From: an uncultured bacterium
GTDB taxonomy: Bacteria; Zhuqueibacterota; QNDG01; CAYUAG01
NCBI GenBank assembly: GCA_964515295.1
Contig: CAZETW010000005.1
Coordinates: 2,826 to 66,825 of the forward strand
DNA length: 64,000 bases
Direction: 5' to 3'
Position numbers and translations under genes: made by a program. Of this stretch, positions 1 through 27,734 are shown piece by piece. Below the pieces are notes generated by a model. That model worked only from the letters and a program-made list of their open reading frames with translations, had not been told where the DNA came from and did no database searches. Position 1 is the stretch's first letter. Every line of letters begins with the position of its first letter.

Positions 1-1905
1 GGTAAGGGAATCATTGTGGGTTACGGTTTTTTCATATCGATAGTAATCACTGGCATAACGGTCGGCATTGATGCCGTCTTCATACATCAAAGCCTGATAT
101 TCACCCTTGCCCAGAAAAGACACATCAATCCGGAATTCCCGGGCAGAACAGTCGGTCATAGCTCCCAGATACCAGTCACTACCGTGTTTCCTGGCCAGGA
201 TCACATAGTCGCTGATTTGTGCCTCCAAGACCATGGTGGTATCCCACACAGTGGGAACTGATGACAAGAATTCCATACATTCTTTTTCTCTCAGGTAATG
301 GGAGGGGCTGTCACAGAGCATCTGCAGAGGACTTTCATACACCACATACATGGCTAATTGGTGACACCTGGTTCCCATGCTCATGGGCCGGGTGAATAGG
401 GCCCGGAAGTTTTTCTCTTGAGCGTTTATCATGGCACCCGGGGTGTAATCCATGGGACCGGCAACCATGCGTATAAAGGGCAGGATCAGATTATGCTCAG
501 GTGTCTGCTTATCACTCCACTTACTCTGCTCCAGACCTCGTACCCCTTCCCGGGTGATAACATTGGGGTAGGCTCGTCTCAGTCCACAGGGGGCATAGGC
601 GCCGTGAAAATCCACCACCATTTTTCTTTGAGCAGCTTCCCGGGCAATCAGGTGATAGTAATTGACCATATCCTGGTCATTTCTCTGCATAAAATCTACT
701 TTGATTCCTTTGACTCCCCATTGTTGAAACTGGTTAAGCGCCGGTTCAAGCTGTTTCTGCAGAGGTTTCCATAAAACCCACAATATTACTCCGACTTTTT
801 TACTTTCTGCATATGCACAGATTTCCTTTACATCAATACCCGGGGATTGCTGTAACAGATCTGTGGTTTTTGACCAGCCTTCATCCAGTATGACATATTC
901 GATATTGTATCGGGAGGCGAAATCAATATAGTATTTATAGGTTTGGGTATTGATACCGGCTCTGAAATCCACCCCGTAAATATTGTTGGCGTTCCACCAG
1001 TCCCAGGCCACTTTTCCGGGTGTAATCCAGGAAGTATTTTTCAACTGTAAGGGTGGTGCCAGTTTGTATACCAGCTGGTTGGTAATCAGATCTTTGTCCT
1101 TTTCAGCTAAAATAAACACCCTCCAGGGAAAGGAGCGAGTTCCTCTGGTCTGAGCCATATAGTCAGCCCGCGTTTCTATAATCTCATCCCGATCCGGATT
1201 TCTGCCGGGTTGGATGGTCAGCGGTACGGCCGGGAATCGGGCAGACAGACTGGTATTGTTTTGACCATGCAGAAACATGCCCGGATAATCCTTCAGGTCT
1301 GATTCTGTAAAAATAAGGTTGTAATCATCTGACGTTTTTATAAGCACGGGTACACTGCACATCTGCTGCTCCCCGATTTCACTGATTTTCAGATATTGAT
1401 AGTATCTTTCAAAATGGGTGATAAAACTTTCTTCAGCAGGGAAATAGGTATAAAAATCTCGGGTAAAATGTATACAGACTTCTTCAGATGAAATTTTGAT
1501 CTCTTTCGGAAAGGAGGTTTCGAATCGATAGGCGAATCCTTCATTGTAGGTTCGAAAGACAATGCTGAAATTATTTTTGAAAATCAGGGTCAGCTCATTG
1601 TACTGATTCTTTAGAGTTTTATCTTTCAGGGGGATAACCGGTTTTATGATTTCCTTACAACTATGCCATTTGTGATCCATCAGTTGCGGTTGTTCCCCCA
1701 GAATCTCTTCCGTGACCAGGGTCATGGATAGAGGAGAAGGATCAAGGATCTCAGCTCCTCGGTACTGTACGGAATAGGTGATGTTATCTTTGATTGTAAT
1801 TAATACCTGAATGTTTTTGCCAGGAGACTCCAGTAGATATTCAGAGGCATAGAGGCTGGATACAAATAAATTAATACATATAAAAAGGAAAAATATGTTT
1901 TTCAT
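1..1905 (-). CDS. Glycoside hydrolase family 97 (SusB-like alpha-glucosidase/alpha-galactosidase), N-terminal ~635 codons; 3' end lies beyond the window
   Basis: Not in the ORF track because it is open at the left edge. Hand translation from ATG at 1905 gives MKNIFFLFICINLFVSSLYASEYLLESPGKNIQV (signal peptide). Every segment I translated, down to base 1, was stop-free. Motifs include AGINTQTYKYYIDFASRYNIEYVILDEGW, GIKVDFMQRNDQ and VVDFHG, typical of GH97. The plus-strand ORFs 16..261 and 418..774 are antisense to it. Confidence 0.85.
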   Translation of the reverse strand, partial: MKNIFFLFICINLFVSSLYASEYLLESPGKNIQVLITIKDNITYSVQYRGAEILDPSPLSMTLVTEEILGEQPQLMDHKWHSCKEIIKPVIPLKDKTLKNQYNELTLIFKNNFSIVFRTYNEGFAYRFETSFPKEIKISSEEVCIHFTRDFYTYFPAEESFITHFERYYQYLKISEIGEQQMCSVPVLIKTSDDYNLIFTESDLKDYPGMFLHGQNNTSLSARFPAVPLTIQPGRNPDRDEIIETRADYMAQTRGTRSFPWRVFILAEKDKDLITNQLVYKLAPPLQLKNTSWITPGKVAWDWWNANNIYGVDFRAGINTQTYKYYIDFASRYNIEYVILDEGWSKTTDLLQQSPGIDVKEICAYAESKKVGVILWVLWKPLQKQLEPALNQFQQWGVKGIKVDFMQRNDQDMVNYYHLIAREAAQRKMVVDFHGAYAPCGLRRAYPNVITREGVRGLEQSKWSDKQTPEHNLILPFIRMVAGPMDYTPGAMINAQEKNFRALFTRPMSMGTRCHQLAMYVVYESPLQMLCDSPSHYLREKECMEFLSSVPTVWDTTMVLEAQISDYVILARKHGSDWYLGAMTDCSAREFRIDVSFLGKGEYQALMYEDGINADRYASDYYRYEKTVTHNDSLT

Positions 1906-2150
1906 ACCATACTCCCATAATTTTACAGTGTATTGGATTATGGATGTTTACACTGATAATATTTTGATTATATACTGATTAAGATACACAATAGAGGTGA
2001 GGTATTCAAGGAAAAAATTATGGTATGATCACTCGGAATGGATACCTTACCCTTGGTGTCTTGGAGTCTTAGGGTAATACTCATTTTATAATCCAAAGAC
2101 ATGGAAAACACCAAGAGTAAAAATTTTTTAAGAATTAATGACTATTGGGA

Positions 2151-2369
2151 TTAGTGATTTTTAATAATTCTAAAGATCATAAAAACCAGCATGATTTGAA
2201 TCAGAGCAATTCCCTCAAAAGTAAAGAATGCAAGTAATCGGTCATTGTAAAATTTTTCCCAGCCAAGTCGATTGAGCATAATTATTGGGGTTATTATCAT
2301 TTCAATCACCAGAATACCCAGACGAATAAATATAAAAAAGTACCGGAGAACCGATAACCATAAAAACAA
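2151..2369 (-). CDS. Small hydrophobic membrane protein, probably the frameshifted 3' part of a 79-codon gene starting at 2391
   Basis: Two or three predicted TM helices. An ATG at 2391 overlaps the upstream stop (TAATG) and reads MKKFFWIFVFMVIGSPVL. It then falls out of frame at a T6 run (minus strand, 2334-2339). Removing one T joins it to this ORF. Confidence 0.4.
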   Translation of the reverse strand: MFLWLSVLRYFFIFIRLGILVIEMIITPIIMLNRLGWEKFYNDRLLAFFTFEGIALIQIMLVFMIFRIIKNH

Positions 2370-2390
2370 AAATCCAGAAGAATTTTTTCA

Positions 2391-2543
2391 TTACTCTTTA
2401 CCTTTTTTCGTTTTGGTGCAGGGATGATGCTTGGTATCGCCGTGACATTCCCGGATCTGTTCTTCGGTGCAGTGCTCCGGTTTGTTCTTCAGTTTTTCCG
2501 GCTGTTCACAACAGCAGTTATCATTTGAATGTTCAGTACACAT
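2391..2543 (-). CDS. 50-aa Cys/His-rich peptide (7 Cys, 5 His), candidate metal-binding or metallothionein-like protein
   Basis: MCTEHSNDNCCCEQPEKLKNKPEHCTEEQIRECHGDTKHHPCTKTKKGKE. Strong SD (AAAGGAGG) lies 5 nt upstream of the ATG at 2543. The gene sits directly downstream of an ArsR/SmtB regulator and has its own palindromic operator. The track start at 2609 is probably too long. Confidence 0.6.
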   Translation of the reverse strand: MCTEHSNDNCCCEQPEKLKNKPEHCTEEQIRECHGDTKHHPCTKTKKGKE

Positions 2544-2580
2544 AAAACCTCCTTTAAAAATAAGTTTAAATTTATAATAT

Positions 2581-2596
2581 AATAAGCATTTGCTTA
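2581..2596. promoter_or_regulatory. Perfect palindrome ATAAGCAtttGCTTAT, candidate ArsR-family operator overlapping a TATAAT-like box for the Cys-rich ORF
   Basis: ATAAGCA/TGCTTAT arms lie between the arsR-like stop and the Cys-rich ORF. On the minus strand the palindrome is followed by TATATTATAAAT and the SD. The same ATAAGC...GCTTAT half-sites recur at 2917-2932. Confidence 0.45.
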
Positions 2597-2616
2597 TTAA
2601 CAATGCCAAAAAAATT

Positions 2617-2913
2617 TTACCCTTCTTGTATATCTATAAAATGTTCTCCTAAATGTTTTCGTACACTTGCCTTAAAATCCCGGAGTCGTCTGTCATCCAG
2701 CTGGTAATGGATGATGGATCCGTATCGGTCGCTTTTCACCAGACCGGTTTCCTTTAAAATTGCCAGATGCTGGGACACTGCAGGCTGAGTAATGTTTAAT
2801 TTTTGGGTGATGGCGTTCACACATAACTTCTTGTCCCGGATGAGCTCCAGTATCCTGATCCGGGATTCGGAAGAGAGCGCTTTGAATATTTTGGCTATTT
2901 CAGTTATGTTCAT
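2617..2913 (-). CDS. ArsR/SmtB-family metalloregulatory transcriptional repressor
   Basis: 98 aa with winged HTH: SESRIRILELIRDKKLCVNAITQKLNITQPAVSQHLAILKETGLV. Confidence 0.85.
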   Translation of the reverse strand: MNITEIAKIFKALSSESRIRILELIRDKKLCVNAITQKLNITQPAVSQHLAILKETGLVKSDRYGSIIHYQLDDRRLRDFKASVRKHLGEHFIDIQEG

Positions 2914-2916
2914 TTT

Positions 2917-2932
2917 ATAAGCCTTCGCTTAT
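2917..2932. promoter_or_regulatory. Palindrome ATAAGCcttcGCTTAT next to the arsR-like start codon; candidate autoregulatory operator
   Basis: Same half-sites as 2581-2596. A further ATAAGC half-site and a TATGTTA...TAACATA inverted repeat follow at 2933-2957. Confidence 0.4.
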
Positions 2933-3008
2933 TATGTTATAAGCATATACTAACATAATAAATAAAAGCAGTAATGTCAAGGGAAAAATAAATTTTTTTT
3001 TAGCCTTG

Positions 3009-3071
3009 GTAACGTTCCTTACAATCACAGTTTTAAATACGATTGACAATCACTTGTTGGGAACGTTTTCC
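3009..3071. repeat. attC-like imperfect palindrome (63 bp)
   Basis: GGTAAC-GTTCCTTACAATCACAG...TGACAATCACTTGTTGGGAAC-GTTTTCC. The AACGTTCC/GGAACGTT and ACAA/TTGT arms pair with mismatches or bulges and are bounded by AAC and GTT. It lies 24 nt after the stop of the Y1 fragment. Confidence 0.4.
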
Positions 3072-3094
3072 TGGGACGGTCTCCGTCCATTCAC

Positions 3095-3463
3095 TCACCA
3101 TTCTGTACAAACAGGTATTAACCCTGTTCCCTGTACATAGTTACGGGCACTTGAGTATCTCCAGTGAACAGGATCATCAACATATCCTCGACGAATCGGA
3201 TTATAATGAATGTATTCAATCTTCCGAGTAGTTATTTTTCTTGTCCTCATTTGTTGTGGATGACTGCCTTCCTGCCAGACTTGATATTCCCTGTCCCTCT
3301 TAAATGTTTGTTTTCCATTGGAAAGTGCGCTTAAAATAAATTTAGAGCCGTTTCTTTTGTAATAATCCATAATCTGTCTGGCTGTATACGACTTGAAATT
3401 CCCCAATTCTTTGGAAAGATTATCTGATGATACTACCATATGCAAATGATTTTCCATAATCAC
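3095..3463 (-). pseudogene. 5'-truncated Y1 HUH transposase (IS200/IS605 TnpA or REP-associated RAYT-like)
   Basis: HUH motif ENHLHMVV sits almost at the N-terminus. The C-terminal YIHYNPIRRGYVDDPVHWRYSSARNY is typical of the family. Upstream in frame there are only 13 codons before a stop and no canonical N-terminal ~60 aa. Confidence 0.65.
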
Positions 3464-3593
3464 ATACGACAGGTGAACTTGACAACCAATATCCCTTATT
3501 TATCGTGTGCCATTGCCTTTAGGCAATGTCTTGCCACACCTATTTATTGAAAATTTATGTCATATCCGGATCACCCGACGGTTCATTGTATTG

Positions 3594-3956
3594 TTATTTG
3601 CTATGGTTAAGTTTAAATTTTTTTGCTATGGCATTTAGCCTTTGATCAAATGTCCAAAGTGGAATATCTGTTACCAAAGATGAAGCAAGAATTGCTACGT
3701 CAATATACCCCAAACCTTTACCCATAATTTTATTATTCTCAATAAAGATCATTATCTCGTCATGCTCTATAAGGGAAGATTGCGGTAAGGCTTTAAGGGC
3801 AGCTATAATTTCTTTTCTATTTTTTATGTTACCACACGCCAATTCTCCCAGAATGAATGGATGGCAAAATACCTCTCCATCATTTAGTAATTCAACGAGT
3901 TGATCATTACTATTTCTAAAATGATCAATCCATATAGAAGTATCGACTAAAACCAT
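3594..3956 (-). CDS. vapC: PIN-domain toxin VapC
   Basis: MVLVDTSIWIDHFR..., 120 aa, placed 6 nt after a VapB-like antitoxin gene. Confidence 0.85.
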   Translation of the reverse strand: MVLVDTSIWIDHFRNSNDQLVELLNDGEVFCHPFILGELACGNIKNRKEIIAALKALPQSSLIEHDEIMIFIENNKIMGKGLGYIDVAILASSLVTDIPLWTFDQRLNAIAKKFKLNHSK

Positions 3957-3962
3957 TTTTTA

Positions 3963-4151
3963 CTAATTTCGTCTTCTTGGTATATTGGTTAAATTCTTTT
4001 CTGTTCCACCAAGTTTTGCTAATCTTTTTGCACTTTCACGGGCAATTAATGCTTCAAGACCTAAACGTACGAGCGATGTCTTTTCTTTAATTCCAGTTAA
4101 TTTTGAGGCTTTATCGATTAGCGTGTCTTCAATGTTTAGTGTTGTTCTCAT
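3963..4151 (-). CDS. vapB: VapB-family antitoxin (62 aa)
   Basis: MRTTLNIEDTLIDKASKLTGIKEKTSLVRLGLEALIARESAKRLAKLGG. I placed the start at the internal ATG at 4151, preceded by AAAGGTG. The track start at 4202 has no SD. Confidence 0.8.
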   Translation of the reverse strand: MRTTLNIEDTLIDKASKLTGIKEKTSLVRLGLEALIARESAKRLAKLGGTEKNLTNIPRRRN

Positions 4152-4224
4152 AAACACCTTTATGTATTGTATGTGCATATTAATATGCATAATATAATGC
4201 ATTTTGTCAAGTATTTATTTAGCA

Positions 4225-4319
4225 TATAACGATACAACTGAGCAGCGCGACGCTAAATGAATCATTCTTTCTTTTAGGTAGGGTAGTGTAGGAGCGTCTT
4301 CTCCAGTTGTTCGTTATAC
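4225..4319. repeat. attC-like imperfect palindrome (95 bp)
   Basis: Arms TATAACGATACAACTG (4225-4240) and CAGTTGTTCGTTATA (4304-4318) are complementary except for one extra base in one arm. They are bounded by TATAAC...GTTATA. The site ends 5 nt from the ParE-family stop (4324). Confidence 0.5.
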
Positions 4320-4323
4320 CGGT

Positions 4324-4620
4324 TTATTCATTTACTTCCTCTGAGGGCAATATTTGTTTAAAGTGACGTACTGTTAAAATGAAAATTTCTTCTTGTCGTA
4401 CCTTGTAAATTATTCGATAATTACCATGAATTATTTCTCGTATATATGGTTTATTTGTTTCAGGAACAATGCGCCCACTTTTAGGAAATTTTTTCAAACA
4501 GTCAATAATTTTAAAAATTGATTCTACCCATTTGATTGAAACATCTGGATTATCTTTGGCTATATATTCTGATATTTCTGTCATTCGTTCTACAGATAAA
4601 GGTGACCAGATAATTTTCAT
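4324..4620 (-). CDS. RelE/ParE-family type II toxin
   Basis: 98 aa with ...IREIIHGNYRIIYKVRQEEIFILTVRHFKQ. It overlaps the upstream Phd/YefM gene by 4 nt. Confidence 0.8.
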   Translation of the reverse strand: MKIIWSPLSVERMTEISEYIAKDNPDVSIKWVESIFKIIDCLKKFPKSGRIVPETNKPYIREIIHGNYRIIYKVRQEEIFILTVRHFKQILPSEEVNE

Positions 4621-4898
4621 TTATTAAGCCTCTTGAGAATTTGAGTTTTAGCCTTATCATGACTTATACCTTGCCCTTTTTCTATTTGAGATTCAGCCAG
4701 TTCAATATCACTTAGTAGCTCGATTTTTTCTAATATTTTCTCATATTCAGCAACATCAAGTATTACGGCAGCACTTCTACCATGCTGTGTTAATACAATA
4801 GGTTTTTTGGTACGTTTAATTTCTTCAATTATTGAAGTGATATTTGCGCGAAAATCAGATAATGGTCTAATATTTGTTTCTAAATTTATTCTGTTCAT
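4617..4898 (-). CDS. Phd/YefM-family antitoxin
   Basis: MNRINLETNIRPLSDFRANITSIIEEIKRTKKPIVLTQHGRSAAVILDVAEYEKI. Start moved to the ATG at 4898, preceded by AAAGGAGG. Confidence 0.8.
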   Translation of the reverse strand: MNRINLETNIRPLSDFRANITSIIEEIKRTKKPIVLTQHGRSAAVILDVAEYEKILEKIELLSDIELAESQIEKGQGISHDKAKTQILKRLNK

Positions 4899-4955
4899 AA
4901 TACCTCCTTTTGTACAATTAATATGCCATTTAATGTACAAAATAAGAGATTAATT

Positions 4956-5080
4956 GTCAAACGTGATTTTCACCGGTCGAACCACCAACCGATTTTCCAA
5001 TAAAAGCAAATAATTCCACTAAACTTCAAAATTTGAAAAAATGGTGCGTGGTTCGATCCGCGTGCAAAATTTTGTTATAT
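4956..5080. repeat. attC-like imperfect palindrome (125 bp)
   Basis: Left arm is GTCAAAC-GTGATTTTCACCGGTCGAACCACCAACCG. Right arm is ATGGTGCGTGGTTCGATCCGCGTGCAAAATTTT-GTTATAT. The blocks ATTTT, CAC, CGG and TCGAACCAC pair, with four single-base bulges in one arm. The site ends 11 nt from the stop of the DprA-like gene (5091). Confidence 0.5.
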
Positions 5081-5090
5081 GTGCTCTCTG

Positions 5091-5618
5091 TCAGTACGCC
5101 TCATTTTCCAAGTTATCAGCGAAAATCAACCTGTCTTTTTCTTTTAATTTATTATATAGTTCTACCATCTTACCGCTTGCATCTACATAAGGGATGTATA
5201 TTTTTTTTGTAAGTTTGACCAGAAACTCATTCCGTTTATTACAGAGTTCTCTTGTCGGTCTTGTAATTAAGCCGTGAATTGGCGTTATGATTAAGATTCT
5301 ATTTTCATCTAAACCTGCTCGCCATAATTTCGGGAGACGCATATTATTCAATGACCTTGCTGGACAGATTACTATGGGTTGTATGCCTTTTATTAATACA
5401 TTCAGAATTTCCTGTTCAACCGGTGAATGAAATCCGCTGGCAATAACCAACCCATCTTCACGCCACTGGAAAGCCTGTTCCTGAATCTTTATGATAATAT
5501 TGCCTGGACATTTTGAAGAGCAAAGAAAAGCAAAATCGATTTGGTCAAGCAAACCAATGTTGCCGATATAATCGCAATGATAGTTTCGACTTTCCAAAGT
5601 CAGTTCAATATTATTCAT
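5091..5618 (-). CDS. Short DprA/Smf-like Rossmann-fold (SLOG-type) protein
   Basis: By eye, FAFLCSSKCPG...VIASGFHSPVEQEILNVLIKGIQPIVICPARSL...RILIITP...RPTRELCNKRNEF...YIPYVDASG parallels the DprA core (GSR..., SGxAxGID..AH, tiaVLgcG, SE.p, F..RNR, vvEa..SG). It overlaps the RhuM-like gene by 8 nt. Confidence 0.45.
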   Translation of the reverse strand: MNNIELTLESRNYHCDYIGNIGLLDQIDFAFLCSSKCPGNIIIKIQEQAFQWREDGLVIASGFHSPVEQEILNVLIKGIQPIVICPARSLNNMRLPKLWRAGLDENRILIITPIHGLITRPTRELCNKRNEFLVKLTKKIYIPYVDASGKMVELYNKLKEKDRLIFADNLENEAY

Positions 5619-6708
5619 CTTCTTCGCTTTTGAGTTTTTCCGGATTCTTTACGAATTTTTTGTCTTCCGATTTGATGTGTTTTTTCAAAAGATGTTTTTC
5701 CATTTCCTCCAATTGCTTCAAATCTTCTTCATTAGCAGCAAGTGCCTCTACTTTCTTTCTTTTCGCGTCAAATTCATTATAACGATCTTCGGCTATTTTT
5801 TTTGCAACCTCTGCTTTAACCTGACCTGCATGTGTTAAAAGATCTTGTTCATTGAATTTCAGAAATGCATCCAGCTTATCAGACCATTGGGCCATAGTAA
5901 CTGTTTTACGCTGGCGGGCTTGCCTTTCAGCATAATCCAGATACATGGTTACAATCTCATTAAGGTCTTTGATTTCCTCTGCCTTTAAATAATTCTTGGC
6001 AATACTCACATCTTGCTTGCGGACCACTGATCCTTTCCAGGATGTAAGCCCCATGTTGGGTTTGTTGGAATCGCCTCGTGATTCGATTAGCTCTGCTGCT
6101 GTTTTGCCTGTCACGGCCCAGAGCATTTTGTTCTGCACCTTTTTATAAAACGTTTGGGCCTGAGTAGATGTCTTGTCATAATCTATGGCTGTTGCATAGA
6201 TATCTCGGATTTTCTGATAGAAACGCTTTTCTGAGGCTCTAATATCTCGAATGCGCTCGAGCCATTCATCAAAATAATCCCACTGCTCTGCCTGCTTGAG
6301 GCGAGCGTCATCCATGGCAAAGCCTTTGATGATGTATTCTTTCAAAATCCGGGTCGCCCATATTCTGAATTGGGTGGCGCGTTTGGAATTTACTCGGTAT
6401 CCGACAGCGATGATGGCGTCCAGGTTGAAAAATTCCATCAATCGGGTGACGTCTCTGCCGCCTTCCTGTTGAACTGTTTCCATTTTGGAAACAGTTGCAT
6501 TTCTATCAAGTTCTCGCTCTTCATAAATATTTTTAAGATGTTTGGATATGGCCGGCACATTGACACCAAACAACTCCGCCATCTTCTTCTGCGTGAGCCA
6601 AATGGTCTCATCCTGAATTACTGTGTCTATCCTGATTTTGCCATCATCTGTGGTATAGAGGATTATTTCCGAACTATTCGTTTTCTTAACCATCAGTTCC
6701 TCTTTCAA
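5611..6708 (-). CDS. RhuM-family protein (virulence-protein RhuM/Fic-associated family) with K/E-rich coiled-coil tail
   Basis: ...IWLTQKKMAELFGVNVPAISKHLKNIYEERELD...AIIAVGYRVNSKRATQFRIWATRILKEYIIKGFAMDDARLKQ... is characteristic of RhuM. Confidence 0.75.
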   Translation of the reverse strand: MKEELMVKKTNSSEIILYTTDDGKIRIDTVIQDETIWLTQKKMAELFGVNVPAISKHLKNIYEERELDRNATVSKMETVQQEGGRDVTRLMEFFNLDAIIAVGYRVNSKRATQFRIWATRILKEYIIKGFAMDDARLKQAEQWDYFDEWLERIRDIRASEKRFYQKIRDIYATAIDYDKTSTQAQTFYKKVQNKMLWAVTGKTAAELIESRGDSNKPNMGLTSWKGSVVRKQDVSIAKNYLKAEEIKDLNEIVTMYLDYAERQARQRKTVTMAQWSDKLDAFLKFNEQDLLTHAGQVKAEVAKKIAEDRYNEFDAKRKKVEALAANEEDLKQLEEMEKHLLKKHIKSEDKKFVKNPEKLKSEEDE

Positions 6709-6732
6709 AGCATTTAAGAATACACATTGCTT

Positions 6733-7011
6733 TCATGCAACTTGTGGGGACAGTCCAAGTTTAACCTGCAACTCGGCGCCTGAACCAATCAAGACCATTT
6801 TCCCGACGTCGGCAAAATGGTCTGCAACCTCGTGACCCGCGGTCTCACAAGCTGTTTTCGCTTTTGAAATGACTTTAACAAAGTTATCCCATTTCGAATA
6901 ACCCAATAGATGCTGTAAATCTCTGGCAAACCAGAATTCAATGTCATTAGCTGTTTTATTGGCATGGGTTTCAAAATCTTTGGTTAGTGTTTTGATGATT
7001 TCCTTTTTCAT
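6733..7011 (-). pseudogene. DinD-like (DNA-damage-inducible protein D) N-terminal fragment, truncated after ~85 aa
   Basis: IEFWFARDLQHLLGYSKWDNFVKVISKAKTACETAGHEVADHFADVGKMVLIGSGAE matches the DinD N-terminal half. The expected LSRYACYL... C-terminal half is absent, and the RhuM-like gene starts 25 nt downstream. Confidence 0.6.
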
Positions 7012-7412
7012 TGCATGTCCTTTAAAAGTGTATAGCCCAAGATCGTTTTGTTGACGTCAACAAAATGATCGAGTATTTTATGACCTGATGTTTCACAGGC
7101 TGTTTTTGCCTTATTGATGACTTTGTTAAAATTTCGCCATTCGGTGTAGCCCAGCAAATGCTGAAGATCGCGGGCAAACCAGAATTCAATCCGACCTTTG
7201 ATGGCCCTCGATATTCATCGTGGGCCTCTTTGGGGGAGGGATATCCATCCCGCTGGGTTGGGCAGGGAAGATTCTACTTTTTTCACCTCCCAATATTCGC
7301 TCTTAACAAAAATCGTTGCTATTTCAAATGTACAGAAATAATAAGAAATTTTAGCTGGATCAATTTTGTATTTTTGCATTTTTTTCACTCTTAGTAAGCA
7401 TGGTAATAACAT
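7008..7412 (-). pseudogene. Second DinD-like fragment fused in frame, across an internal TGA, to an unrelated 5' ORF
   Basis: Hand translation gives ...LPQRGPR*ISRAIKGRIEFWFARDLQHLLGYTEWRNFNKVINKAKTACETSGHKILDHFVDVNKTILGYTLLKDMQ*. The in-frame TGA is at 7215-7217. There is no start codon after it. The terminal TGA overlaps the ATG of the 6733..7011 fragment (ATGA). Confidence 0.55.
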
Positions 7413-7517
7413 TCATTAGTCAGTATCTTAGCCCCTAATCCACCCATCGGGATACATATCCCTCTCCATTTTATGCCCAGGATGAATATCCAGGGCAATC
7501 AGCTTTTATGTTATATA

Positions 7518-7814
7518 CTAATCAATAACTCTATCAATCCAGTATTCTGGTACTCTATGTTGGTGTGCTACTGCTAAAATATAAATTTTATTATTATATT
7601 TGGTATAAACTAAATTATAGGGAAACTTTCTTAATACCGCTTTTCTTGTATTTTTTGTAATTTCTGACCATACTTCCGGAAAAATTTTTATCAGTTCAAT
7701 TGTCTTTAAAACTTCATCAAAGAATCCATCTCCAAGCCCTGGAGATTCAAGATTATAATATTTTACAGCGTCATCTAATTCAATTGATGCAGGCTCAATA
7801 AATTCAACATTCAT
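7518..7814 (-). CDS. RelE/ParE-family type II toxin
   Basis: 98 aa with ...AVLRKFPYNLVYTKYNNKIYILAVAHQHRVPEYW. Its ATG abuts the stop of the upstream antitoxin gene. Confidence 0.75.
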   Translation of the reverse strand: MNVEFIEPASIELDDAVKYYNLESPGLGDGFFDEVLKTIELIKIFPEVWSEITKNTRKAVLRKFPYNLVYTKYNNKIYILAVAHQHRVPEYWIDRVID

Positions 7815-8024
7815 TTATTTATACCGTTTTACAATTTCATCTAAAGGTACAGTATCTACTTTTCCTTCTTTTAATGCCTGATATCTTTTTTCTGATTCTT
7901 CAGCCCATATTTTTTCTATTTCTTTATCAGGTTTATCAAGACTTTGTGTTAATTTTTCAATTAACCGAAGTCTTTCGGCCGGCCTTAATTGTAATGCTTC
8001 TTTTAATATTGTTTTTGTATTCAT
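7815..8024 (-). CDS. Addiction-module antitoxin component (TIGR02574-like)
   Basis: 69 aa: ALQLRPAERLRLIEKLTQSLDKPDKEIEKIWAEESEKRYQALKEGKVDTVPLDEI. Confidence 0.7.
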   Translation of the reverse strand: MNTKTILKEALQLRPAERLRLIEKLTQSLDKPDKEIEKIWAEESEKRYQALKEGKVDTVPLDEIVKRYK

Positions 8025-8190
8025 TTATATACTCCCTAAATAGGATGAATTCATTATTATCAATTAACAACTATTTGCAATATACAAAAGCAGTTTCTAT
8101 TATTCAATAAGTAATAATTTAGATTTACCCAGTTTAATTTAAATATCTATTATTTTCAACATTCAGAGTATTGTCTTGTATATATTTAGA

Positions 8191-8374
8191 CATAACGATT
8201 AAATTACCGGTGAAAACAACCGAAATTTAGCGGGCCACCGGTTTAAAATTAAACTGCAGTAAAAATACCGGCCCCATAACAAATTTGTCAATCAAAGGGC
8301 AATGCTATCGTTGGCCGAATGAAAATGTGAAAATGAAAGGTGGCGTTTTCATCCGGTGCATTTTTGTGTTAGCG
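8191..8374. repeat. Long attC-like imperfect palindrome (about 184 bp) directly after the DGR RT stop
   Basis: Left is CATAAC-GATTAAATTACCGGTGAAAACAACCG. Right is GGTGGCGTTTTCATCCGGTGCATTTTTGT-GTTAGCG. The blocks AAAT, ACCGG and TGAAAAC pair with bulges. An inner GGGCCACCGGT...ACCGGCCCC hairpin is present. The arms resemble those of the 4956-5080 site (TTTCACCGGT / CCGNGTGCA...TTTTGT). Confidence 0.4.
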
Positions 8375-8381
8375 TAACATT

Positions 8382-9584
8382 TCATAAATATTTGATTTTA
8401 CATGCAAATTTGCCCGCCCCGTTATGCAAATAAACATAATTCCACCACCATGCAGACAGGTATTTTACAATCATTTCTTTTCTGGCTCTATAAGATTTAT
8501 AATGCTTCATAATACCCAGGTATGAATTCATGCTGCTGAGGAACTTCTCCTGTTCCACCCTTGTCGGCTTATGGTCACGAGCTATTTGATTTTGTTTCTC
8601 AATTGATTCATAAAAGTTACCCTTTGTACGGTTGGCAATATAAACCCGGTGCGGTTTGATTACAGCACCAGGATATTTTACACCTTTTGTAAAATGCTGA
8701 AGGTATATTTTATTGGGATGCAGATCCAGCCTCAAGTATATTTTGAGGTATGATTTAATTACCGGAATCAAGGATTTCAAATATTCTTTGTCTTTATGAA
8801 TCAGAATGAAATCATCCACATACCGGCCATAATATCTGATTTTCAAATCTCTTTTCATAAAATGATCGAATTCATTCAGGTAAACATTTCCGAATAATTG
8901 TGAAGTTAAATTTCCGATGGGCAGGCCGCAATCAGGACCGGAATGAAAAAGGCTTTTATCGTTTGGTAAACCCTGCCAGTCTTTTCTGCAGCCCTTGGTG
9001 ATGCAATCTTGGGTTGGATCGTTGAAAATGATTTTTTCGAGCAAATAAAGAACCAGATGTAAATCAAAATCCGCTCTGCCGGGTGCCGCAGATAAGGCTG
9101 ATTTGATTTTTTCAAAAAGCAGCCGTCGGTTCATGGCCATAAAATAGCCGCGGATGTCCAGTTTTAAGATATGGCAATCTTCAGTATAATTTAATGAGCA
9201 TGACCGGATAAAATGATCAATCCGTTTGATTCCGTAATGCGTGCCTTTACCCTTGCGGCAGCTGTAGCTGTCATTAATAAACATGCCCTCAAAAACAGGT
9301 GCAAGATAATTATAGAGCAAATGATGCACCACCCTGTCACGGAAGTTCGCGGCGAAGATTTCGCGCTTAACGGGTTTATTCACAATAAAAAAGATGCTTT
9401 TTCTCGGTTCGTAGGTGCGGTTCATGATCTCTTCATGCAATTCAAAAAGATTCGTTTCAAAATGTTTTTCAAAAGCCAGCGCATTGATGGTGTTCCTTTT
9501 ATTCCAGCGGGCGTCAAAATACGCCTGAAACAGATCTAACAACAGTTTCTCTTCATTTTGTTCGTCAAACAATGTTGTCTGCAT
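8382..9584 (-). CDS. Diversity-generating retroelement reverse transcriptase
   Basis: 400 aa with RT motifs, including the DGR-type GLPIGNLTSQLFGNVYLNEFDHF (SQ in place of QG) and the catalytic YGRYVDDFILI. It lies adjacent to a TR/VR pair and an avd gene. Confidence 0.9.
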   Translation of the reverse strand: MQTTLFDEQNEEKLLLDLFQAYFDARWNKRNTINALAFEKHFETNLFELHEEIMNRTYEPRKSIFFIVNKPVKREIFAANFRDRVVHHLLYNYLAPVFEGMFINDSYSCRKGKGTHYGIKRIDHFIRSCSLNYTEDCHILKLDIRGYFMAMNRRLLFEKIKSALSAAPGRADFDLHLVLYLLEKIIFNDPTQDCITKGCRKDWQGLPNDKSLFHSGPDCGLPIGNLTSQLFGNVYLNEFDHFMKRDLKIRYYGRYVDDFILIHKDKEYLKSLIPVIKSYLKIYLRLDLHPNKIYLQHFTKGVKYPGAVIKPHRVYIANRTKGNFYESIEKQNQIARDHKPTRVEQEKFLSSMNSYLGIMKHYKSYRARKEMIVKYLSAWWWNYVYLHNGAGKFACKIKYL

Positions 9585-9591
9585 TTTATCT

Positions 9592-9620
9592 GCATGGCGG
9601 CCCGTCCAAGGCCGCCATGC
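9592..9620 (-). other. GC-rich hairpin between TR and the RT start (perfect 11-bp stem, 7-nt loop)
   Basis: GCATGGCGGCC-cgtccaa-GGCCGCCATGC. It lies 16 nt after the TR 3' end and 7 nt before the RT ATG on the minus strand. No SD is visible for the RT. Confidence 0.6.
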
Positions 9621-9636
9621 CCTTTTGACTGTTTTA

Positions 9637-9831
9637 AATCCCGAATAAGCCGGATACTAAAACCGTTTTGCTTATTGTTGTTGTTACGGTTCACGTCTGA
9701 ATTATTGTAATTCAGGTTCCGGTTCCACGCGTTATTGGTATTGTTCTCGGTAGACGACCCAAAATTGGCGTTGTTGCCGAGATTGTTGAAGTTACCATTG
9801 TTGTTGCGGTAACCACCGGGAAGCGCGGAAA
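9637..9831 (-). repeat. DGR template repeat (TR), 195 bp
   Basis: Aligns without gaps to 10471-10665 (offset 834). By hand count there are 39 mismatches. Of these, 37 fall at plus-strand T, which is adenine on the transcribed minus strand of the TR. The TR reading frame is Asn-rich (about two dozen AAY codons). Confidence 0.9.
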
Positions 9832-9985
9832 TAAAAGCAGCCGCTGAATTAATCATGCCTTCATTCTCAGAAAACATGAACTGATACCTCGCAAAAAAAC
9901 ACAAGGGGGCTGCCGGATTTAAATACGCTCGCTTGCCTGCGCCGTGGCGGCAGGCAACTCTGGCTGAACAGTCTAATACAGTTTT

Positions 9986-10016
9986 AAAGTTAAAAGTTGT
10001 AAAGTTCATAAAGTTT
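9986..10016. repeat. Left arm of the inverted repeat bracketing avd (overlaps the avd stop codon)
   Basis: The reverse complement AAACTTTATGAACTTTACAACTTTTAACTTT matches 10370-10401 (AAACTTTATGAACTTTATAAACTTTTAACTTT) with one mismatch and one 1-nt indel. Confidence 0.8.
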
Positions 10017-10353
10017 TAACAAGTCCGGATATGATTTTTGAGATTTCTTCAGCCTTTGCAGATAATTCATCTGCTTGGTTTTGTTTTAATATACTCATCG
10101 CACCTGCCAATAAAAGCATTGACCTGACCTCACCGCATGAGCCTTTGGCAACAAACAGAAAATGCTTGAATTCATTGTTTGATCTTCTTTCAAACCCCTC
10201 TGCAATATTATTCATTATTGAAACACAAGCGCGCTGAATTTGGTCTTTAAAACCATAATCTTTGCTGTTCTCAAACAGCTTGTAAACTTGAATTGTCAGC
10301 AGCTTCGCCTTCTGCCACGCAATAATTTCTTCAAACCTGTTAATCTTCATCAA
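10006..10353 (-). CDS. avd: DGR accessory variability determinant (Avd), four-helix-bundle protein of the 23S rRNA-intervening-sequence-protein family
   Basis: 115 aa: ...AWQKAKLLTIQVYKLFENSKDYGFKDQIQRACVSIMNNIAEGFERRSNNEFKHFLFVAKGSCGEVRSML. This is typical of TIGR02436/PF05635-type proteins. It is located between VR and TR. Confidence 0.8.
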   Translation of the reverse strand: MMKINRFEEIIAWQKAKLLTIQVYKLFENSKDYGFKDQIQRACVSIMNNIAEGFERRSNNEFKHFLFVAKGSCGEVRSMLLLAGAMSILKQNQADELSAKAEEISKIISGLVKTL

Positions 10354-10369
10354 TAACTTTCAACTTTAT

Positions 10370-10401
10370 AAACTTTATGAACTTTATAAACTTTTAACTT
10401 T
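10370..10401. repeat. Right arm of the inverted repeat bracketing avd (16 nt upstream of the avd start)
   Basis: See 9986-10016. The arm is embedded in a run of AACTTT-type hexamer units (10357-10406). Confidence 0.8.
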
Positions 10402-10420
10402 CAACTCAAAAATATTTTCG

Positions 10421-10437
10421 ATTCCGCTTCGCGGAAT
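10421..10437 (-). other. Small hairpin ATTCCGC-ttc-GCGGAAT 33 nt downstream of the VR end; candidate DGR target-site hairpin/cruciform
   Basis: 7-bp perfect stem with a 3-nt loop (GAA on the transcribed strand), just 3' of the target gene stop. Confidence 0.5.
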
Positions 10438-10468
10438 AAATAGTATAATAGTCGAATAGATAAATAGT

Positions 10469-11158
10469 CTAATCCCGAATAAGCCGGATACTATAACCGC
10501 CTTGCTTACCGCCGTCGCCACGGTACACGTCTGAAACACTGTAACCCAGGACCCGGCTCCACGCGCGATAGGTACCGTACTCGGTAGACGACCAAAAATA
10601 GGCGTAGTAGCCGAGAAGGCGGAAGCCACCATTGCCGTGGCGGGAACCACCGGGAAGCGCGGAAAAGCCGCTTTCATTCGTCGCACCTTCATTCGGACTC
10701 CCCCAATGTGTTGTGCCGGTTGTCTTCATCTTGCCGCCAGCAACTTCTTCGCCTCCAAGATAGTTTACCAATGTTGCCCACTCTGCGTCTGTAGGCACAT
10801 GCCAGCCTGAGGGAGCAATATTATGAACATCTGTGACAGCAAACCAGTTATATAAATAACCGTATATATCTGCGGTACTTTCACTATTATCAAAAGCACA
10901 ATAAGCGCCTGTTGATAGATTTTCCCATTGTGAATTGTCTGTAACATGATTTATCGGGGTACCGTCACAGTAATGGGTCACCTTCAAATTCTCGGCCATC
11001 CATACCTGATTACCTATTTTTACGGTTTGATATACATTACCGTCAATATCCTTAACCGTATCCGAAACCGTATTCTCGGTTGGACTCTTTTTGTTGCATC
11101 CCGTTATGAGCATCATAAATAACACTACAACCGTTAATAATGACATTGCTTTTTTCAT
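10469..11158 (-). CDS. DGR target: surface lipoprotein with a Fibrobacter-succinogenes-major-paralogous-type domain and a C-terminal variable region
   Basis: Signal peptide plus lipobox (LITGC). DIDGNVYQTVKIGNQVWMAENLKVTHY...YGYLYNWFAV...APSGWHVPTDAEWATL is typical of TIGR02145. The last ~65 codons are the VR. Confidence 0.85.
   Translation of the reverse strand: MKKAMSLLTVVVLFMMLITGCNKKSPTENTVSDTVKDIDGNVYQTVKIGNQVWMAENLKVTHYCDGTPINHVTDNSQWENLSTGAYCAFDNSESTADIYGYLYNWFAVTDVHNIAPSGWHVPTDAEWATLVNYLGGEEVAGGKMKTTGTTHWGSPNEGATNESGFSALPGGSRHGNGGFRLLGYYAYFWSSTEYGTYRAWSRVLGYSVSDVYRGDGGKQGGYSIRLIRD
10471..10665 (-). repeat. DGR variable repeat (VR), 195 bp, at the 3' end of the target gene
   Basis: See the TR entry. 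The final ~22 nt before the stop are identical to the TR. Confidence 0.9.
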
Positions 11159-11249
11159 CGCTTTTCTCCTTTGTAATTGTTGATTGCTTATGCTGATATT
11201 GTAACTGCATTCTAAGACACTAACATAATATTAACTACCAAAAACCAGC

Positions 11250-11384
11250 CTAAAAAAATATTTTAAGAATGTTCCTCTTAAAGTCATTACGATAACGAAC
11301 GCAAATAAGATCATCTCCATATTTTTTCATGATCTTTTTTGTACCGGGTTGACCAGGTTTTAATTTTTTTATTGTTCTCATCAT
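11250..11384 (-). CDS. 44-aa basic ORF (below the track threshold), possibly a truncated small conserved protein
   Basis: [44 protein letters not shown]. The KPGQ.GTKK...YGD.L.CVRYR pattern looks like a small family I recall from other bacteria. This is from memory and not verified. Confidence 0.3.
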
Positions 11385-11397
11385 ATATTGTCTGCAA

Positions 11398-11508
11398 GGC
11401 TTTTACTCCCAATCCTCCTCGCGGTAGTACATGTGTATAAAACATAGTTGGTGCTTTATTTTTATGCCCTGATAACTCCTGTCGAGTATTTATATTATAA
11501 CTGCATAT
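11398..11508 (-). pseudogene. C-terminal remnant (~35 aa) of an integron-type tyrosine recombinase (IntI-like)
   Basis: Hand translation gives ...[36 protein letters not shown]... Compare the IntI C-terminus ...[32 protein letters not shown]. The catalytic-Tyr box YTHV followed by L..GG.GV is IntI-like rather than XerC/D-like. A stop lies immediately upstream, and the rest of the gene is absent. Confidence 0.55.
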
Positions 11509-11591
11509 TTAATATTTAAAAAGTAATTATATTCATAAGTAATAAATTTTTATAAAAATGTCAAGTTTTTTATGCCGGGTTAAAAAAAACA

Positions 11592-11620
11592 TTGACAAAG
11601 CTTTAAAAAGGTGTTATTTT
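11592..11620 (+). promoter_or_regulatory. Sigma70-like promoter candidate (TTGACA-17 nt-TATTTT) for the ATP-grasp operon
   Basis: TTGACA at 11592-11597 and TATTTT at 11615-11620, about 45 nt before the GTG start at 11665. Confidence 0.35.
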
Positions 11621-11664
11621 AATTTGCAGTTTTGATATTTCATTAAAAACAGAGGAATTAGGAA

Positions 11665-13815
11665 GTGAAAGTTGCTATAATTTATAATGAAGATTTAACC
11701 GGGGTCATCAATCAGTTCGGTATACAGAATAAGGAAATTTATAATCCAACTACGGTAAAATTGGTAGCTGATTCTCTGGAAAAGGGGGGACATAATGTCA
11801 AAGTCATAGACGGCAACATGCAGGTCATAGAGAGCCTGACTGAATTTATGCCCCGGGTGGTTGAAGGCGAACGTATGGGTATGGTGTTTAATATGGCTTA
11901 TGGTATACAGGGAGAAAGCCGGTATACACATCTTCCGGCCATGCTGGAGATGATGGGTATTCCTTATGTAGGTTCCGGCCCCACCGGACATGCAATGGCT
12001 CTTGATAAAGTAATCACAAAAATAATTTTTCAACAGCATACTATTCCCACTCCGGATTTCTGGGTGCTGTCCAGTCCGGATGATGATGTTAGTGAAATTA
12101 GTTTTCCGGTTATAGTAAAACCAAAAATGGAAGCCGTTTCTTATGGTCTTAAAGTTGTTAATAATAAAAGAGATTTACGTAATGCAGTGAAATTTATCAT
12201 TTCAGAATTTCAACAGCAGGCTCTTGTAGAACACTTCATCAGAGGAAGAGAGTTCTGTGTTGCTTTGCTTGGCAATGGTAATCCTGAAGTATTTCCCATT
12301 GTAGAAATAAATCTTGAGAATGATCCTGATGCAATTCAGACTGTTGAAGATAAAAAACAGAAACCAAGAGAAAAAATATGTCCTGCGGATCTGCCCTCTG
12401 AGATAGAATCAGCTATGATTGCAGCCAGTAAAAAAGCCTTTCGGGCTCTGGAATTGAAAGATTTTTCCAGAGTTGATATTCGTATGGATAGTGAAAATAA
12501 TATATATATCTTAGAAATTAATTCAATGGCAAGTCTCGGTAAAACCGGATCTTATGTTTATGCTGCCTCCAAGGTCGGATATACATATTCTCAATTGGTT
12601 AATAAGATGCTGGATGTAGCTGCTGTACGTTATTTTTCTCAACCATCAGTTCAGGATGAGGTAAAAGATGAAAAATCAGCTTTATCAGTACGTATAAGAG
12701 GATTTTTAAGGAGCAGACAGACAAAAACAGAGAAGTTGCTGAAGAAAATGACTGATATTAATACCCATACCAGAAATGTAGAAGGGGTAAACAGATGCGG
12801 TAATATAATATGGGAAGAGCTGAGTAAACTGGGTTTCAGTCAGCAGGTTATCCCCCAAATTCAAATAGGGAATATGCTTTTTTTTACTAACACTATTAAG
12901 AAAAATTATGATGCACTTGTTCTGATACATCTTGACTCTTCTGTCAGTTTCAGAAAACAGCAGAATTATCAAGTGGATAAAAATAGAATTTACGGAACAG
13001 ATGTATGGGAAAGTAAGGGGGGGTTGGCTGTTTTAATATCAGCCCTGCAGGCTTTGCGATTTGTAAGAAAATTACATAGAACAAGAATCGGAATTTTGCT
13101 TACTACTGACAATAAAGCAGGTGGGAGGGTAGCAAGAGAACATATTCTGAATATATCCAGAAAAGCCAGAGTAATCATTGGATTAAAGGGGGGAGGAATA
13201 AAAGGAACAGCCATTACTTCCCGTTCCGGAGCAGCACAGTATTCCTGTCAGATGAATTTTGAGAAAGGCAGTGAAGCAGAAGAAGTAGCTCAAGCCATAG
13301 AAAAATTCACCAGGATTCTTACCAGATGGACTAAATTTACCGATGCTGCTACAGGTGTGGTTGTGTCTCCCAGTAAAGTTGAAATTGATACGAATATTTC
13401 AGAGGTGGTTGCTCACGGTGAGGTAATGCTCAGTGTCCGTTTTAACACTCTGGAAATGGGAGAAGAAGTTGATGAGAAGATTCGCAATGTTATTAAAAAA
13501 AGTCATTCAGGGAATTTTCGAGTGCAAATCGAAGGTGGTATACGACGCCCACCACTCTTAAAAACGGAAAAAAGAGAGAAATACTGGGCACGGATAAAAG
13601 CTATAGCTGATAAAATTGACATCAGACTGCTGGAAGAACATCGCTGGAGTTCCTCAGATGTATGTTTTATTCAGGATGATAAACCAGTGATTGACGGTAT
13701 AGGTCCGGTGGGAGCTAAACATCGGGAGCAAAGTGGCTATATATTGAGGCACAGCCTTTTGGAACGGGCAACGCTTCTGGCCCTTATTCTTAATGATTTG
13801 AGTAAGGAGAAATAA
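11665..13815 (+). CDS. Fusion protein: Ddl-like ATP-grasp ligase (N-terminal) plus M20-peptidase-like domain with substituted catalytic residues (C-terminal)
   Basis: The N-terminal ~320 aa have the D-Ala-D-Ala-ligase-family ATP-grasp layout (...FPVIVKP...EHFIRGREF...ILEINSMASLG). The C-terminal part has M20-like LVLIHLDSSV, GTDVWESKGG and GPVGAKHREQSGYI, but the DEE(I)GS motif reads TTDNKAGG. GTG start with SD. Confidence 0.65.
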   Translation: MKVAIIYNEDLTGVINQFGIQNKEIYNPTTVKLVADSLEKGGHNVKVIDGNMQVIESLTEFMPRVVEGERMGMVFNMAYGIQGESRYTHLPAMLEMMGIPYVGSGPTGHAMALDKVITKIIFQQHTIPTPDFWVLSSPDDDVSEISFPVIVKPKMEAVSYGLKVVNNKRDLRNAVKFIISEFQQQALVEHFIRGREFCVALLGNGNPEVFPIVEINLENDPDAIQTVEDKKQKPREKICPADLPSEIESAMIAASKKAFRALELKDFSRVDIRMDSENNIYILEINSMASLGKTGSYVYAASKVGYTYSQLVNKMLDVAAVRYFSQPSVQDEVKDEKSALSVRIRGFLRSRQTKTEKLLKKMTDINTHTRNVEGVNRCGNIIWEELSKLGFSQQVIPQIQIGNMLFFTNTIKKNYDALVLIHLDSSVSFRKQQNYQVDKNRIYGTDVWESKGGLAVLISALQALRFVRKLHRTRIGILLTTDNKAGGRVAREHILNISRKARVIIGLKGGGIKGTAITSRSGAAQYSCQMNFEKGSEAEEVAQAIEKFTRILTRWTKFTDAATGVVVSPSKVEIDTNISEVVAHGEVMLSVRFNTLEMGEEVDEKIRNVIKKSHSGNFRVQIEGGIRRPPLLKTEKREKYWARIKAIADKIDIRLLEEHRWSSSDVCFIQDDKPVIDGIGPVGAKHREQSGYILRHSLLERATLLALILNDLSKEK

Positions 13816-17617: not shown

Positions 17618-17666
17618 CATAGAACTCAATAAGTAATGATAAGAAAGTAAGTAAAGATAAAAATAG

Positions 17667-17751
17667 TGCCGGAGGCGGGAATCGAACCCGCATGGAGCTA
17701 AGCTCCGCTGGATTTTGAATCCAGTGCGTCTACCAGTTTCACCACCCCGGC
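17667..17751 (-). tRNA. tRNA-Leu (anticodon CAA)
   Basis: Minus strand reads GCCGGGGTGGTGAAACTGGTAGACGCACTGGATTCAAAATCCAGCGGAGCTTAGCTCCATGCGGGTTCGATTCCCGCCTCCGGCA. It has a 7-bp acceptor stem, anticodon loop TTCAAAA, a long variable arm and T-loop GGTTCGATTCC. CCA is not encoded. Confidence 0.9.
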
Positions 17752-22883: not shown

Positions 22884-22907
22884 CGGGTATTACCCCCTGA
22901 AATCTGA

Positions 22908-27719: not shown

Positions 27720-27734
27720 ATTTACTCCGTGATC

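Follow-up and report, generated by a model that had tools for sequence, protein, structure and literature searches.

The 64,000-nucleotide stretch analysed here (hereafter the window, in whose coordinates all positions are given unless another contig is named) comes from an uncultured bacterium of the lineage Zhuqueibacterota; QNDG01; CAYUAG01 (GenBank assembly GCA_964515295.1, contig CAZETW010000005.1, positions 2,826 to 66,825 of the forward strand). Between a GH97 gene (1–1947) and a gene for a 716-aa ATP-grasp/M20 protein (11665–13815), every open reading frame (ORF) is on the minus strand. A preliminary description, made by a model from the nucleotide sequence alone, had pointed out this uniform orientation, with which the ORF list agrees, and had read the region as a degenerate integron cassette array with attC-like recombination sites and a remnant of the integron integrase gene intI. 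The island in question, which we place at about 2998–11590, contains three attC sites, a truncated intI, three toxin-antitoxin pairs, a number of other genes and gene fragments and a diversity-generating retroelement (DGR), the last of which had been overlooked.

All three attC sites are on the minus strand. attC#2 (4224–4319, 96 nt) starts 4 nt past the stop codon of parE, attC#3 (4956–5080, 125 nt) 10 nt past that of a 175-aa ORF, and attC#4 (8190–8374, 185 nt) 7 nt past that of a reverse transcriptase (RT) gene. Their R'' and R' core boxes are GTATAAC and GTTATAT, ATATAAC and GTTTGAC, and CGCTAAC and GTTATGT, respectively; relative to the consensus RYYYAAC/GTTRRRY, the AAC and GTT are exact in all three sites, with one or two deviations at the degenerate positions. 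In all 23 reference attC sites the order of elements is R'' (7 nt), a 5-nt spacer, 3 bp, one extrahelical base and the stem, followed on the other side by 3 bp, a 5–6-nt spacer and R' (7 nt). Under the definition of attC features, extrahelical bases included, taken from PMC5027507, the three sites of the island display the canonical 7-nt R'', 5-nt spacer, L box, variable loop, 5–6-nt spacer and R' with its GTT. When the bottom strand is folded, as the preliminary description had proposed, extrahelical bases are seen at position 16 in attC#2, at 16, 20 and 24 in attC#3 and at 16 and 23 in attC#4. The description had listed four imperfect palindromes with bulged arms and AAC/GTT ends (3009–3071, 4225–4319, 4956–5080 and 8191–8374). 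On the plus strand these fold at −11.8, −15.1, −20.4 and −28.8 kcal/mol, respectively, and their folds beat those of shuffled controls (z = −2.8, −3.2, −3.1 and −2.2). They do lie close behind stop codons (4–24 nt by our measurement), and two of them share arm sequence as reported, TTTTCACCGGT being common to 4967–4977 and 8206–8216.

The covariance models of attC used in the searches were built without any sequence of the window and stand as proxies for the model of IntegronFinder. The first (R1) was made from 22 curated class 1 attC sites of arrays recovered via IntI1 and was run on both strands of the whole 64 kb with filters off; the second (R2) from 112 attC sites that R1 had found beside IntI genes of many phyla; and the third (R3), which is lineage-matched, from attC sites of unrelated metagenomic arrays. 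R1 located attC arrays beside the IntI genes of 40 loci; in 21 of these the sites share the strand of the IntI gene and lie downstream of it, in the other 19 they are upstream on the opposite strand, and no third placement occurs. Since only these two arrangements are legal, the result validates R1; it also identifies the same-strand downstream layout of the window as the known inverted-integrase arrangement, in line with what had been claimed. In the window, attC#2 was the best match (R1 23.7 bits, E = 0.002; R2 24.2 bits, E = 0.004; R3 34.8 bits). The R1, R2 and R3 scores were 10.1, 14.1 and 26.0 bits (R3 E = 0.003) for attC#3, and 7.9 (over 8190–8373), 12.6 and 31.9 bits (R3 E = 1e-4) for attC#4. 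All were full-model matches, ranking first, third and sixth in the window with R1 and first to third with R2, and their R3 E values spanned 2e-5 to 3e-3. For comparison, R3 noise reached at most 14.7 bits, ∼166 kb of related non-integron DNA gave no full-length attC match above 12 bits, and low-GC integrons with an intact intI score comparably, at 13–40 bits. The covariance search, which the preliminary description had set as a test of its proposal, thus returned three of the proposed sites as the top three of the window, on the correct strand and at full length; models derived from clinical class 1 cassettes still pick up the best-preserved site in an uncultured low-GC lineage.

Base pairing in the sites points the same way. 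Across five sites of the array, 87% of the model pair cells are paired, as against 22–44% when the partners are slid, with the reservation that the alignment was fitted to the model and therefore favours pairing; in addition, seven of nine L-box pairs are changed on both sides. As attC sites they would be recombined by IntI as a folded bottom strand. A search against Rfam gave no match on the attC sites. An architecture scan of our own design (AAC, 5 nt, a 3+1 L box and, after the loop, GTT) found attC#2 and attC#4 and was dropped, as it gave ∼3 matches per shuffled window. The TTCGA motif of attC#3 was also considered as a tRNA fragment and discarded: the only tRNA that ARAGORN and Rfam find in the window is tRNA-Leu at 17666–17751.

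Five candidate attC sites had been put forward in all, and while those at 4224–4319, 4956–5080 and 8190–8374 stand, the ones at 3009–3071 and 7405–7516 do not, neither being matched by R1, R2 or R3 at E≤10 even in a search confined to the island. The first of them, at the island's left edge, is a weak, symmetric palindrome that lacks an extrahelical base and is built on the self-complementary AACGTT. The second, which had been considered the weaker candidate, is explained by a repeat element: it represents one 69-nt arm of an inverted repeat at 7199–7501, retrieved by an inverted-repeat search and resembling repetitive extragenic palindromic (REP)/REPIN sequences or miniature inverted-repeat transposable elements. 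The two inverted arms consist of short hairpins, TGCCCTGGATATTCATCCTGGGCA and GGGATATGTATCCC, and the element sits inside a dinD/Bro-N-like gene, which it interrupts. One arm recurs with 93.7% identity at positions 9999–10077 of a locus (L304) from the related metagenome-assembled genome BLK5-2.bin.76, and in a comparison of the 64-kb window with L304 the element behaves as a dispersed repeat. The copies of the REP-like motif in L304 (9999–10077 and ∼7363–7383) flank a conserved block of genes that is considered below.

At the other end of the island, positions 11398–11508 (minus strand) encode the last ∼34 codons of a truncated intI, which points toward the cassettes. The stub matches the integron integrase models TIGR02249 (E = 1.5e-4, model positions 279–309 of 315) and PRK15417, and a profile search gave no Xer or phage integrase family at E≤1. 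It agrees with the C-terminal consensus of IntI at approximately 22 of 30 residues. When 71 full-length IntI sequences from attC-bearing loci were used as tblastn queries, the window was matched only at 11398–11508 (59–69% identity, E ∼ 1e-8), where the stub aligns with the last ∼34 residues of IntI (about 291–324 of a 328-aa IntI), and no other IntI segment was found in the window. The IntI-type C-terminus recognised in the preliminary description is therefore matched by integron-integrase models only, and the fragment is closer to IntI than to the Xer or phage integrases with which it might have been confused. Some 90% of intI is gone, and the truncation adjoins the right edge of the island. 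A 44-aa ORF (KPGQPGTKK...CVRYRND; 11250–11384, minus strand) lies between the stub and the DGR, hereabouts where attI would be expected; it has no match in Pfam or NCBIfam and no homology to the loci fetched for comparison, among which no homologue of the region 11150–11600 was found either.

The unit formed by phd (4617–4898), parE (4324–4620) and its own attC, which extends up to G4230, occupies positions 4231–4961 of the minus strand. Homologues of ParE with 84–89% identity were found on the metagenomic contigs L291–L297, where an attC of 94–95 nt (36.9–42.3 bits) follows 5 nt past the toxin gene and the upstream attC scores 16–23 bits. Four of these contigs (L291, L294, L296 and L297) are 89.4–89.8% identical to the window at the nucleotide level, and only from position 4960 to 4220/4225. 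The crossovers predicted from the R' boxes fall at G4962^T4961 (attC#3) and G4230^T4229 (attC#2). Past the shared GTTATA there are four unrelated continuations, one in the window, one in L291 and L294, which are alike, and one each in L296 and L297. At the left end, homology in the other contigs sets in only ∼25 additional nucleotides past their own R'. Since homology breaks at the R' crossover points and the flanks diverge in four ways, Phd-ParE is proven, at the level of sequence comparison, to be a discrete mobile cassette bounded at the G^TT of R'. Among the units of the island it alone has been demonstrated to be one. A further set of contigs (L298–L301) carries the same toxin-antitoxin genes with other genes downstream, in an array of at least eight attC sites.

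The extent of the island was judged by synteny. To the right, homology to two loci (L001 and L002) picks up again at ∼11580–11591, and the comparison with these and a third locus (L003) is informative for this edge only. To the left, L304 is 83–90% identical to the window over 2997–2383 and 1905–1, so that the ArsR gene, a Cys-rich ORF and the GH97 gene, being syntenic in L304, represent conserved chromosomal genes. The island had been taken to begin at 2151; in view of this conserved ArsR–GH97 block its start is moved to near 2998, L304 homology setting in at 2997. The intervening part, 1906–2382, is an indel relative to L304: a 72-aa membrane ORF and its surroundings are missing from the otherwise syntenic block in L304, as a small indel.

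The array does not end at the GH97 gene, as had been supposed. A Logan contig (L081), 100% identical to window positions 1–5076 and reaching 2.6 kb further left, contains two more co-oriented attC sites (6386–6570 and 7517–7696 of L081), located 1.3–2.6 kb left of window position 1. They score 26.1 and 11.6 bits with R2 and 31.2 and 19.8 bits with R3, and together with attC#4 they share one 185-nt family. The cassette array therefore goes on past GH97. The genes that precede these two sites are a 281-aa ORF without a family match and a 266-aa ORF of a TolB-like beta-propeller. In L304, the region downstream of GH97 (10450–11713) contains a 150-aa ORF with a 37.7-bit attC and then a DUF6364/PIN_3 toxin-antitoxin pair. 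The comparison with a syntenic genome, which had been called for in the preliminary description, accordingly reveals different cassettes downstream of GH97 and demonstrates cassette turnover at a shared locus. Among the fetched loci there is no homologue of the stretch from VapBC to 3009–3071, nor, the REP-like arm excepted, of the 3.1-kb interval between attC#4 and attC#3.

The integrase-proximal slot, between the intI stub and attC#4, is filled by a complete DGR (8382–11158), all parts of which are on the minus strand and which is intact as judged from its sequence. Its target gene (10469–11158) encodes a FISUMP (Fib_succ_major) lipoprotein (PF09603, E = 7e-52; TIGR02145), the 3' end of which contains the variable repeat (VR; 10471–10665). 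It is followed by the gene for an Avd-type four-helix-bundle accessory variability determinant (10006–10353; PF05635, E = 4e-33; bAvd; TIGR02436), an RT-7 RNA motif (9830–9964), the template repeat (TR; 9637–9831), which is 195 nt long and 80% identical to VR, and an intact RT of 400 aa (8382–9584; PF00078). The mismatches between TR and VR fall at adenines of TR in 37 of 39 cases (23 A>G, 9 A>T and 5 A>C), and this adenine bias is the signature of a DGR. A decayed ORF had been described at 9536–10009; there is no gene at this position, which is taken up by the template repeat. RT-7 is an Rfam motif that occurs close to RT genes and whose role is unknown. In the window it lies directly 5' of TR (RF03028, 65.4 bits, E = 1.2e-13), and in five relatives it was observed between avd and TR (L288 8175–8311, L289 9609–9745, L384 5617–5751, L385 776–909 and L387 2620–2754). 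The matches in the window DGR and the five relatives have E values from 1e-6 to 2e-15 and are all below the gathering score; in this clade the motif seems to be a conserved element of the DGR RNA.

Homologues of the RT with ∼70% identity number in the thousands and are accompanied by the other parts of a DGR (target, avd and TR), and the more distant DGR relatives sit in ordinary chromosomal surroundings that lack attC sites. The closest DGR, that of L288, is 80% identical at the nucleotide level from avd to RT and shares with the window the sequence GTTACGCTAAC, with an R''-like CGCTAAC box, past the RT stop codon before the two diverge, which suggests that the link between DGR and attC may be older than the split of the two lineages. 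Past CGCTAAC, L288 shows a weak match to domains D1–D4 of a group II intron (9758–9942, 35.5 bits, E = 2.7e-4), and an intron remnant may have invaded or truncated an attC at this site. A recurrent association of DGR and attC is not seen, the closest relatives (L288, L289 and L384–L389) being without attC. Given the absence of homologues of 11150–11600 among the fetched loci, no 5' boundary of the DGR can be defined. Judged from position only, the complete DGR (∼3.2 kb) may itself be an integron cassette that ends in attC#4, a possibility that we advance tentatively and regard as somewhat less probable than its opposite. If it were true, integrons would be able to take up, keep and mobilise a targeted hypermutation system, gene shuffling and targeted hypermutation would be physically coupled, and a means of horizontal spread would be open to DGRs that is absent from the literature searched, in which we found no report of a DGR within an integron or linked with cassettes.

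Taken together, these features are best explained by a sedentary chromosomal integron of the inverted-integrase type, of which the island would be the decayed head; in present terminology it would be a CALIN (cluster of attC sites lacking an integrase) beside an intI pseudogene. To this explanation we assign a probability of about 0.85. A CALIN is defined as two or more attC sites within 4 kb with no functional intI nearby (Cury et al. 2016, PMC4889954); here attC#4, attC#3 and attC#2 are spaced by 3.1 and 0.64 kb and intI is truncated. A complete integron would have an intact intI with the IntI-specific extra domain; in the window, only the last ∼34 codons of intI are present. The preliminary reading as a degenerate cassette array is thereby supported, and the attC covariance search, the REP comparison and the integrase search, each named there as able to refute it, all came out in its favour. 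The element is thus of a known kind, a CALIN or decayed chromosomal integron of inverted type, with an unusual DGR passenger; it provides, for an uncultured low-GC lineage, a well-documented remnant of an inverted-type integron in which the boundaries of one cassette are proven by comparison with other arrays.

Several observations weigh against this interpretation. Neither an attI site nor a Pc promoter was identified. Taken singly, attC#3 and attC#4 are marginal under the general models (E = 0.6–9), and the R3 scores reflect family homology in part. Two of the intervals between attC sites are as long as 3.1 and 5.5 kb, with several genes in each, so that several attC sites must have been lost or were never present. 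The ArsR gene, the Cys-rich ORF and the GH97 gene flank core genes in the relative and are found here between segments of the array, which implies a rearrangement. Finally, related DGRs at 70–74% RT identity are without attC.

Three other explanations were weighed. The palindromes might be REP/REPIN sequences mobilised by a REP-associated tyrosine transposase (RAYT), their likeness to attC being accidental. This is favoured by the N-terminally truncated RAYT at 3095–3463 (minus strand; NF047646, E = 2e-18, model positions 54–146 of 146), correctly noticed in the preliminary description, and by the genuine REP-like inverted repeat at 7199–7501 with its copies in the related genome. The break of a contig within attC#3, where two Logan contigs of the same genome overlap by exactly 30 nt (5047–5076), likewise hints at a repeated 30-mer. 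However, the attC sites differ in length (96, 125 and 185 nt) and in sequence, nothing else in the remaining 52 kb of the window matches them over their full length, and the REP-like motif is unrelated to them in sequence. Moreover, they fit attC models trained elsewhere, compensatory changes keep their pairing, and the ends of a cassette fall precisely on their G^TT crossovers. We therefore consider this explanation largely refuted and very improbable indeed. The Logan contigs concerned, from runs SRR7048218 and SRR7048220, end in attC#3 (5047–5076) and in the REP-like arm (∼7228), which points to recurrence or polymorphism of these sequences in the source sample.

A generic toxin-antitoxin or defence island beside a degraded phage or Xer-type integrase, with hairpins that serve as terminators or antitoxin operators, would account for the cargo, as three toxin-antitoxin pairs, RhuM/PDC-S05 and a DGR are typical of such islands, and short operator-like palindromes do occur upstream of vapB (4174–4201) and phd (4898–4952). 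Yet the integrase stub matches IntI families only, and the hairpins in question are separate from these operator palindromes, measure 96–185 nt, have no T-runs, lie 3' of genes and score as attC; this alternative is highly improbable. Group IIC-attC introns are the known association of an RT with attC, and the RT next to attC#4 could accordingly belong to an intron that invaded the site and not to a DGR. A partial match to the NCBIfam group II RT model (99.5 bits, the cut-off being 300) and the weak D1–D4 match that follows the RT in L288 agree with that view, but the island yields no match to group II intron RNA domains at E≤10, the RT has the orientation of the cassettes, and it is part of a complete DGR that also comprises avd, TR and VR. 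For the window this explanation is already refuted by the TR/VR pattern, with 37 of the 39 mismatches at TR adenines, and its probability is close to nil.

If the island is the remnant of an inverted-type chromosomal integron, its history may be pictured as follows. Cassettes would have entered as circles, IntI recombining the folded bottom strand (the plus strand of the window) of an attC with attI or with another attC and cutting between the G and TT of R'. Destruction of intI would then have frozen the array, unless IntI were supplied in trans, and three toxin-antitoxin modules, by penalising deletions, may have helped to retain it. The missing attC sites, the gene fragments, the REP-like insertion and the RAYT stub would be products of later decay. 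The DGR, for its part, should diversify the C-terminal ligand-binding surface of the FISUMP lipoprotein by adenine-specific mutagenic retrohoming.

The island shares with CALINs and the sedentary integrons of the inverted-integrase group, as named in PMC3575428, a cluster of co-oriented canonical attC sites with an intI pseudogene at its 5' end on the same strand, a homogeneous attC family, cargo that is mostly of unknown function and cassettes that differ from those of a related genome. It departs from them in that intI is reduced to ∼34 codons, that intervals of 3.1 and 5.5 kb with several genes separate attC sites, that the conserved genes from ArsR to GH97 lie between array segments, and in its uncultured low-GC host. 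Type II toxin-antitoxin pairs, each with intergenic space for a promoter, are interspersed here as in the Vibrio cholerae superintegron and other large chromosomal integrons, and plausibly stabilise the array; unlike there, Phd-ParE alone is demonstrated here as a bounded cassette, and VapBC is without a detectable attC. The prototype of DGRs is that of Bordetella phage BPP-1. With DGRs that have FISUMP or C-type-lectin-fold targets the present one has in common the order target-VR, avd, TR and RT, the adenine-specific changes and the location of VR at the C-terminus of the target; it differs in its position between an intI stub and an attC 7 nt past the RT stop codon, and in the RT-7 motif 5' of TR. 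Group IIC-attC introns resemble it in that an RT gene adjoins attC, whereas the window has no intron RNA, a cassette-matching orientation and an RT within a complete DGR.

As to the remaining cargo, the three toxin-antitoxin pairs listed in the preliminary description were all recovered, as were its small regulators and decayed fragments, among which ArsR, RAYT and DinD/Bro-N fragments could be identified. Besides Phd/ParE (4324–4898), the pairs are VapB-VapC (3594–4202, minus strand; PF09957, PF01850; NF047959), for which a model search confined to the island detected no attC of its own, and a third pair at 7518–8024 on the minus strand, composed of a TIGR02574-type antitoxin (7815–8024) and a ParE-like toxin (7518–7814; PF09720, PF05016 and TIGR02574 for the pair). 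The DinD/Bro-N gene is represented by two tandem fragments (6733–7200, minus strand; PRK11525, E = 5e-31, model positions 1–83 of 288; PF02498) with an internal 70% duplication. A RhuM-family gene (5611–6708, minus strand; PF13310, E = 2e-113; PADLOC PDC-S05, E = 9e-146) overlaps by 8 nt with the ORF of 175 aa, which is weakly DprA/PsyrA-like (5091–5618, minus strand; PsyrA, E = 1.3e-4), and the two may form a two-gene defence module. In the left part of the region, the ArsR gene, the Cys-rich ORF and the 72-aa membrane ORF are likewise on the minus strand. Outside the island, positions 17817–30923 contain three large minus-strand ORFs (1688, 1603 and 1062 aa) with many internal repeats, the spacings of which are mostly multiples of roughly 220–230 nt (families D1 and D2); their products look like repeat-domain surface proteins.

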